A DNA stretch of 64,000 nucleotides, taken from the IMG/VR virus record IMGVR_UViG_3300044951_001239, positions 1 through 64,000 of that record; one strand, written 5' to 3'. The notes below the pieces were generated by a model that searched no databases, was not told the origin of the DNA, and was given only the letters and a program-made list of their open reading frames with translations. Below, in pieces: positions 22,480-22,850 of the stretch. This stretch comes from a virus. Made by a program: the position numbers and the translations under genes. The first letter of the stretch is position 1. The number at the start of each line of letters is the position of its first letter.

Positions 22480-22850
22480 CAATTGCCGATTAGAGAGCCA
22501 TGGTAGTGCAAATTTGCACTACCAATGGGTAAAAGTGTGTTTGCCACGACCGTCGACCTTTGCATTCTATTCCCCGTATAATTGCCTATTTCTGACATTA
22601 TACGCAACCGGTTGTCCTGTAATGTTTTTGGGACTGTAGTGAAGCTGCCAATGTCTTTCAATTGGTCCTTCGACAACGCATGTTCTATATCCGCAAGATA
22701 GAGTTGGATATAGACTCATTGAAGGTTCGCTTTGACGAGAGCCTTCTCGGTTTTCCATGAATATTGCTATTCATGTATACTCCAGATCCGTCAGCACAGC
22801 ACAATCTGTACAAACTCAAGGAGGACCCACAAACTGAGCCAGCAAATTGT
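22480..22850 (-). ncRNA. Putative large structured non-coding RNA (~370 nt), family unknown
   Basis: Nested long-range helices pairing the two ends, at least 6 internal hairpins, and GNRA loops and G-U pairs that favour the minus strand. No credible ORF. Confidence 0.6.

Follow-up and report, generated by a model that had tools for sequence, protein, structure and literature searches.

This study concerns a 64,000-nucleotide (nt) stretch of uncultured viral DNA (the window; positions 1 to 64,000 of IMG/VR record IMGVR_UViG_3300044951_001239) and a predicted RNA gene on its minus strand. Comparison of related loci showed that 22852-22480 (-) encodes a large structured non-coding RNA, one of a new family found in uncultured T4-like jumbo phages. 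From this core the gene probably extends to a terminator hairpin at 22409-22393. A first-pass annotation, made from the window alone, had proposed an undescribed large structured phage RNA on the minus strand, directly behind a resolvase-like gene, and the proposal was upheld by strong covariation and the lack of an Rfam match. The RNA carries two short words, here termed Box A and Box B, which differ between phages yet match within each RNA. The best explanation as a whole joins the new RNA family to a core that acts in trans through these twin boxes, and we consider it about evenly balanced between right and wrong.

The gap that holds the RNA spans 22345-22859 and is bordered by the stop codons of a 58-amino-acid (aa) plus-strand gene and a 139-aa minus-strand gene. 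A search with the 139-aa protein returned 43 related IMG/VR loci, in 42 of which the gap was 69-95% identical over ~500 nt. No conserved reading frame was found in the gap on either strand of the related loci compared, and gap lengths among relatives differed by non-multiples of three. The minus strand of 22480-22850 folded to -111.4 kcal/mol, with z = -3.10 against dinucleotide shuffles compared with z = -1.85 for the plus strand. An RNAalifold consensus of 33 non-redundant sequences contained 104 pairs, 51 of them with compensatory changes. The final structure, which includes both pseudoknots described below, was scored on a trimmed alignment of 32 distinct sequences (A2). Standard pairs were found in 98.4% of 3043 cells, against 89.6% after shuffling within columns and 29-46% when partners were slid by 1-3 columns. 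Two-sided (compensatory) changes were present in 43 of the 96 pairs and none of 500 shuffles reached the covariation score. The syntenic gaps of relatives, which had been named as the place to look for covariation, proved informative both in conservation (42 of 43 loci) and in compensated pairs. G-U pairs accounted for 7.3% of cells, and standard pairs fell from 98.4% to 91.4% when the alignment was read as the plus strand. Because the G-U pairs fit solely the minus strand, the RNA is assigned to that strand, which is also the strand of the gp55-to-resolvase genes; the earlier strand call, made from the G-U pairs and GNRA loops of a single sequence, was correct.

The core comprises about a dozen helices, with P1, P2, P3/P3a, P4, P9 and P10 arranged around a three-armed domain. 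It is 373 nt long in the window and 348-421 nt among 188 unique sequences, in which 115 of the 373 positions were at least 97% conserved. A covariance model built from A2 (CM R1) scored the window copy at 434 bits. The core was better conserved than the neighbouring proteins, retaining at least 61% identity to the window RNA where the resolvase had ~50% amino-acid identity.

Positions in the RNA are numbered as p = 22853 minus the window coordinate, and all elements of the core lie on the minus strand. The core opens with a conserved 5' leader, UAAMAAUU (RNA 1-8, 22852-22845), upstream of which the sequence is not conserved; the leader belongs either to the RNA itself or to a promoter. Strand X (UUGCUG in the window and UUGYUG in the family; RNA 8-13, 22845-22840) pairs with Box B to form the closing helix P1, and could equally pair with Box A. 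An end-closing helix had been drawn at this place in the first-pass annotation. Its GCUG/CGGC core (RNA 10-13 with 365-368) was retained, weakly, with one-sided changes alone, and its AAUU extension proved specific to this window. The P2 hairpin follows (RNA 14-28, 22839-22825; 4 of 5 pairs compensated), and then P3, a nearly invariant CUCC/GGAG helix (RNA 30-33 with 70-73, 22823-22820 with 22783-22780) with one CG-to-UA compensation. The hairpin P3a lies within P3 and was called from pair statistics (RNA 38-63, 22815-22807 with 22797-22790). P4 (RNA 78-97, 22775-22756) is a hairpin with a GNRA tetraloop, identified by pair statistics and a loop tally. Its loop reads GCAA in the window and GUGA, GCGA or GUAA among relatives, and conforms to GNRA in at least 119 of the 188 unique sequences.

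A three-armed domain made up of P6, P7 and P8 is closed by P5 (RNA 101-105 with 243-247, 22752-22748 with 22610-22606), whose pair 101-247 covaries as AU, UA and CG. Position 230 (22623), in the internal loop of P8, always carries the same base as position 101 (22752), the P5 partner of 247 (22606), and the three may form a base triple or an alternative pair. P6 (RNA 107-132, 22746-22721) is a hairpin with an invariant inner stem-loop, and P7 (RNA 134-173, 22719-22680) a hairpin in which 8 of 11 pairs are compensated. P8 (RNA 176-242, 22677-22611) is a three-tier helix with a long 3' internal loop that holds an invariant CACUACAG and the 5' strand of the second pseudoknot. The P9 hairpin (RNA 249-278, 22604-22575), with 8 of 11 pairs compensated, has a conserved CAGAAAUAG loop. 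P10 (RNA 325-355, 22528-22498) consists of the 24-nt palindrome at 22524-22501 plus CCA/UGG and is followed by an invariant CCAUGGCU. Compensated P10 variants GGUAGGGC/GCCCUACC were found, and the palindrome stem also shows G-U variants. A switch in which GUAGUG of the P10 5' strand would pair with the invariant CACUAC in P8 was dropped because variants such as these preserve the hairpin and would break the alternative pairing.

Eight of the eleven helices listed in the first-pass annotation survived this comparison (P4, P6, P7, outer P8, inner P8, P9, P10 and the core of P1). Among them, P7 as drawn at 22714-22684 and both outer P8 (22677-22672 with 22616-22611) and the inner P8 hairpin (22665-22648) had comparative support. 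Two long-range helices did not survive. GUGGGU (22830-22825), thought to pair with ACCCAU (22530-22525), is the 3' strand of the local hairpin P2. The segment GUUUGUAC-A-GAUUGU (22815-22801), thought to pair with 22553-22539, is the local P3a, and the long-range pairing is broken in relatives. P2, P3, P5, both pseudoknots and the twin boxes were absent from the earlier list.

Both pseudoknots surfaced by mutual information in 106 unique sequences. PK1 joins the P7 loop CUAUCU (22701-22696, RNA 152-157) to 22568-22563 (RNA 285-290) and occurs as CUAUCU/AGAUGG, UUAUCU/AGAUAA, UUGUCU/AGACAA, CUGUUU/AAACAG, UCACUU/AAGUGA and CUGCUUU/AAAGCAG. The 3' strand of PK1 is AGAAUG in the window compared with AGAUGG in most relatives, and a shifted 5-bp register, UCUAU/AUAGA, is available in the window. 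PK2 joins UCCC (22633-22630, RNA 220-223) to GGGA (22574-22571, RNA 279-282), with variants UCCC/GGGA (n = 123), UCUC/GAGA (n = 9) and CCU/AGG (n = 11) and single cases of CUCC/GGAG, ACC/GGU and GCC/GGC. Between them, PK1 and PK2 anchor the loop of P7 and the internal loop of P8 to the segment directly 3' of P9.

Box A (UCGUGGCAA; family xC(RU)GGCAA) occupies RNA 304-312 (22549-22541) and Box B (UCGGCAA; family xCGGCAA) occupies RNA 364-370 (22489-22483), where it also serves as the 3' strand of P1. The word is nearly fixed as CGGCAA and varies chiefly at one flanking letter, x. Positions 304 and 364 had a mutual information of 0.93, as identical bases and not as Watson-Crick partners, and no third column inside the RNA covaried with either. 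In 153 of 159 parsed unique sequences x was identical in both boxes (G/G 94, U/U 53, C/C 3, A/A 3), and the box pentamer was the same in both in 146. Rare pentamers (AGCAA, AGCAG, GGCAG, GGCAU and GGUAA) appeared in both boxes together, and several unparsed sequences likewise held parallel words, such as GCAAGUA or GGUAA. On a maximum-likelihood tree made with the boxes masked, parsimony inferred that x had changed 12 times in Box A and 13 times in Box B, with 12 of the changes sharing a branch. These same-branch changes indicate a real coupled constraint on the boxes. The observed box substitutions are exactly those tolerated by wobble pairing with X. Duplexes of X had mean energies of -4.35 kcal/mol with Box B and -3.65 kcal/mol with Box A, against -2.3 +/- 1.9 kcal/mol for random windows. 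Twin boxes that stay identical, not complementary, across at least 12 independent double changes are an unusual signature. No standard RNA-pairing model explains them, which points to an undiscovered partner.

We tentatively propose that the compact core acts in trans and presents two identical words to one bivalent reader. In this proposal the RNA would be made either as the tail of an early or middle gp55-gp47-gp46-resolvase unit or from its own promoter, and would end at 22409-22393. The core would then work in trans, offering Box A and Box B to a shared reader with two equivalent binding sites, either a dimeric protein or a nucleic acid with the complementary sequence. A shared reader would explain why both boxes change together. 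X (UUGYUG) could pair with either box and so might switch the RNA between two closures, and catalysis, sequestration and priming are candidate outputs.

Several observations weigh against this proposal. The alternative closure by X is weakly backed: its duplexes are weak and X does not covary with the boxes. For the same reasons alternative closure alone fails to explain why the boxes are identical. No complement of the box at a conserved place was found within 6 kb in 209 loci. When the 95-kb record was compared with three relatives carrying another x, the only orthologous complementary site was Box B itself. No resolvase residue tracked x (the best mutual information was 0.29 of 0.94 bits); the resolvase was rejected as the box reader, its best column signal being phylogenetic noise. 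A protein reader, an RNA or DNA reader and a direct same-base contact between the boxes are not separated by this evidence. The window copy and its near-twin (L003) have two PK1 mismatches in the family register. Finally, the ends, abundance and expression of the RNA are all inferred from sequence.

An RNA that starts replication would account for the boxes in another way. The transcript or a box would re-pair with phage DNA as an R-loop and be processed to a primer, as in ColE1 RNA II or T4 oriF/oriG, and the boxes would be identical because Box A of the RNA must match the DNA at Box B. We regard this as improbable. The RNA does lie within a replication and recombination gene unit, like the structured ColE1 RNA II and T4 oriF/oriG transcripts, and 5.3-5.6 kb from the main divergent strand switch. 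Box identity, as opposed to complementarity, is what pairing of an RNA to its own DNA needs and could serve such re-pairing, and an RNase HI gene adjoins an analogous gap in Sinorhizobium phage Phosso. However, the cumulative GC-skew minimum and the strand switch lie upstream of gp55 and not at the RNA, and the skew may mirror coding-strand bias alone. The complete genome G002 has its global skew minimum at 103.5 kb, coincident with the divergent strand switch (104.1-104.3 kb), and the RNA lies 5.3 kb away. In G001 the switch (~219.8-219.95 kb) is at the global skew minimum, and in G004 and the window (~28.4 kb; 28338-28441) the minima are local. The main strand switch just upstream of gp55 is the best candidate for a replication origin; an origin at the RNA itself appears unlikely, as the skew minimum is 5.5 kb distant. 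The RNA also sits at a point of convergent transcription, a 7-9 nt hybrid is very short, and an architecture with two pseudoknots and ~30% invariant positions is far more elaborate than known primer RNAs need.

A ribozyme, with a catalytic knotted core and the boxes as alternative substrates or processing sites aligned by a guide-like X, appears to us equally improbable. Its size, two pseudoknots, GNRA loop and ~115 near-invariant positions, many of them junctional, bring the RNA closer to the cores of RNase P and group I introns than to regulatory RNAs. It is comparable to those cores in size class and, like them, has a closing helix, a peripheral hairpin with a GNRA cap, pseudoknots crossing a central helix and numerous invariant nucleotides at junctions. 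X can pair with both boxes through wobble-tolerant pairs. Against this, no Rfam ribozyme family matched at E <= 10, X does not covary with the boxes, and the strand order of the knot differs from both the group I P3/P7 knot and the RNase P P4 knot. A group I intron interrupts a gene and has a guanosine-binding P7; here exons are lacking on both sides, the RNA lying between the stops of convergent genes, and no Intron_gpI match was found. RNase P RNAs have conserved regions CR-I to CR-V, among them GAGGAAAGUCC and the P4 pseudoknot; in this RNA GAGGAAAGUCC is absent, there is no bulged-U P4, and no RNase P model matched at E <= 10. A helix reminiscent of P4 is nested, and the stretch ahead of it varies (GGAAAA or GGAUAUA).

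Slightly less probable still is an RNA-only multimer, a self-associating cage or ring with a structural function. GOLLD and ROOL RNAs are roughly 580-800 nt long, compared with ~370 nt here, and are frequently placed beside tRNA genes in phages and prophages. Like this RNA, GOLLD (RF01998) and ROOL (RF03087) are large, multi-helix, pseudoknotted and phage- or prophage-borne, came first from metagenomes and have no defined function. ROOL, GOLLD and OLE are described as homo-oligomers in the literature consulted (PMC12286853). A multimer would suit a large, ornate phage-borne RNA with the palindromic P10, a self-complementary invariant CCAUGG and, in about one third of members, a palindromic P10 loop (AAAUUU). 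The P10 loop is, however, non-palindromic (UGAAUA) in most members, and kissing contacts need complementary boxes rather than identical ones. The RNA matches neither GOLLD nor ROOL in sequence or structure, and differs from them in its fixed single-copy position in one phage clade and its twin identical boxes. Nor does it lie beside tRNA genes: none are present in the 64-kb window, and the tRNA arrays of G002 are at least ~94 kb from the RNA.

The position of the RNA directly 3' of an operon, with no late-promoter word upstream and terminator-like hairpins following, would fit an untranslated 3' element acting in cis, whose sole task is to stabilise or terminate the gp55-gp47-gp46-resolvase transcript or to keep read-through out of the convergent late genes. 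We rate this no higher than a multimer, since ~370 nt, two pseudoknots, same-base covariation and ~30% invariant positions far exceed what a 3' stabiliser needs and the core surpasses the neighbouring proteins in conservation. That there is no RNA at all, only a decayed protein gene or a DNA element (an origin, packaging site or protein-binding palindrome), is hardly credible. Three overlapping stop-to-stop frames run along the minus strand, and the perfect 24-bp palindrome and the short direct repeats formed by the boxes could be protein sites on DNA. However, no frame is conserved, G-U pairs, which would be A-C on the other strand, are maintained, and there are 43 compensated pairs, two pseudoknots and G-U or compensated variants in the palindrome stem. 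A decayed protein gene was rejected specifically, as the three overlapping frames had no Pfam match and were not conserved.

The first-pass annotation had also offered the adjacent degenerate nuclease as a partner of the RNA. This is unlikely from the comparison of loci: the gene is intact in most relatives and truncated here with the RNA kept. As the RNA persists beside a broken nuclease gene, it would not be a dedicated nuclease partner.

A wider reading of the trans-acting core is possible but doubtful. The RNA may represent a new class of large RNAs, catalytic or adaptor in kind, on which T4-like jumbo phages depend to replicate or to take over the host. Its knotted core would offer twin words to a bivalent reader, and it would be one of several non-homologous RNAs that occupy this 'resolvase slot' in different jumbo-phage lineages. 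If true, this would point to a conserved RNA-based step in giant-phage biology. Large RNA classes with complex folds are very few, and the majority have proved to be catalytic RNAs or to form the core of an essential ribonucleoprotein. The RNA occurs widely among giant phages that are abundant in fresh and marine waters, and the family may bring to light a new role for RNA in phage replication or host takeover. It is a ready target for cryo-electron microscopy, chemical probing and self-cleavage assays.

Comparison with known families returned no relative. Rfam 15, searched over the whole window at the gathering score, gave no matches, including to GOLLD, ROOL, OLE, HEARO, raiA, group I and II introns, RNase P, tmRNA and 6S. 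At E <= 10 over 22300-22900 there was a single chance match, mir-4703, on the palindrome. ARAGORN found no tRNA in the 64-kb window and no tmRNA, an RNA marked by a tRNA-like acceptor domain and a tag reading frame. The Rfam search suggested earlier therefore agrees with novelty, as does the earlier statement that the RNA lacks the hallmark motifs of tmRNA, RNase P and group I/II introns, for which neither ARAGORN nor Rfam gave a match. The Polynucleobacter-1 motif (RF01718) had no match at E <= 1 in the five genomes (G000-G004) and none in the window. Guide RNAs of the omega-RNA or HEARO type, which are tied to an RNA-guided nuclease gene such as IscB or TnpB and carry a variable guide segment, offer no parallel: the neighbouring gene encodes a small Hjc-like resolvase and is truncated here with the RNA kept, and the RNA has no hypervariable guide-like end. 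Reverse transcriptase (PF00078) is absent from the five genomes, three of which are at least 90% complete, and roles that depend on it (a retron or a telomerase-like template) were rejected on this basis. No description of the RNA was found among the papers returned by literature searches or in a 2026 review of jumbo-phage biology. Some words resemble 16S rRNA (CCUCCUU and others); the resemblance is limited to 7-8-mers, and ~34 shared 7-mers are expected by chance. The complete 360-kb genome G002 has 34 tRNA genes, in arrays at the contig ends (L340, L347 and L357). It also has a permuted tmRNA predicted by ARAGORN (G002:C1:146402-146878) with the tag ANDSQFALAA, far from the RNA.

More than 300 contigs retrieved from viral and metagenome collections shared the conserved gap, and their names include lake and marine metagenomes. 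Two motif scans of viral contigs and one of metagenome contigs each matched at least 116-120 contigs. CM R1 matched all 100 loci searched, 89 at full length (197-398 bits) and 11 cut by a contig end. Wherever a locus had sufficient flanking sequence, the RNA was immediately preceded by a same-strand resolvase gene and faced from its downstream side by the convergent 58-aa and hub genes. The RNA was single-copy in each of five genomes of 95-525 kb. A scan of 185,579 prokaryote species genomes with one motif found no copy, and 50,697 phage records held no match in cultured-phage DNA. CM R1 also gave nothing significant on the syntenic loci of PA5oct and Phosso, two distantly related cultured phages. 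Near its resolvase and hub genes, Phosso has an unannotated 1-kb gap (L165:3791-4806); it gave z = -5.6 on one strand, weak evidence as a single-sequence z-score, and had no match to CM R1. The corresponding gap of Pseudomonas phage PA5oct, also near resolvase and hub genes (L164:3283-3947), is lined with tiny annotated open reading frames (ORFs).

In the window a T4-type late-promoter word, (T)ATAAATAC, was enriched 17-fold within 80 nt upstream of genes (for example at 23765, 21270 and 21240). In 65 relatives, none of the 900 nt preceding the RNA contained this word, and an own late promoter for the RNA was rejected on this ground. The leader word TAAMAATT had 29 matches in the window against 19 expected, a count reached in 4 of 100 shuffles, and does not qualify as a promoter word in general use. 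These features read most simply as a transcript of ~465 nt, predicted to be either the distal end of the gp55-gp47-gp46-resolvase unit or the product of an unrecognised promoter overlapping the leader. The co-transcription with gp55-gp47-gp46 suggested by the first-pass annotation is plausible. Beyond the core, two conserved tail hairpins lie at 22440-22393, with covarying stems (alignment columns 449-500). A terminator-like hairpin on the RNA strand occupies 22409-22393 (-), and a second, at 22412-22432, is followed by a T-run and faces the convergent plus-strand genes. The stem of the latter covaries, yet its loop of 11 nt, read as GAACGNAGUGA on the RNA strand, hardly varies, which is unusual for a plain terminator.

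The record that contains the window is a 95-kb fragment of an uncultured T4-like jumbo phage, with a CheckV completeness of 27%. By portal protein the closest cultured phages are Atu_ph07, XaC1, Phosso and PA5oct, at ~50% amino-acid identity. On the minus strand upstream of the RNA lie gp55 (26900-27820), gp47 (25836-26891), gp46 (23767-25839), a SegE-like GIY-YIG homing endonuclease gene (23308-23751; 147 aa; PF19835, E = 1.4e-33) and the 5'-truncated PDDEXK_15 (Hjc-like) resolvase gene (22860-23279; 139 aa), which has a weak PDDEXK_15 match. The SegE-like gene, which lies outside the RNA and is served by a TATAAATA late promoter of its own at 23765, is an insertion between gp46 and the resolvase gene that cuts the latter short. 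The close relatives L001-L003 share this arrangement, with its resolvase remnant. In most relatives the resolvase is intact, with ~185 aa and a clear PDDEXK_15/Hjc-like match (E = 1.8e-23). The window protein aligns solely to residues 69-185 of the 185-aa full-length form and has lost the catalytic E-x-K, which reads N-V-E. This truncation is confined to the lineage of the window, where the RNA is retained.

On the other side of the RNA, the 58-aa gene, a gp51-like ORF (22168-22344, +), and a gp26/gp51-like baseplate-hub gene (21296-22120, +) are followed by a 1065-aa gene with no family match (18055-21252, -) and the portal gene (16243-18033, -). The hub gene ends in GAT TTT TTC GGA TAA (22107-22121), which contains the slippery heptamer T TTT TTC. 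A -1 frameshift at this heptamer could enter a frame that is open from 22108 through the 58-aa gp51-like ORF.

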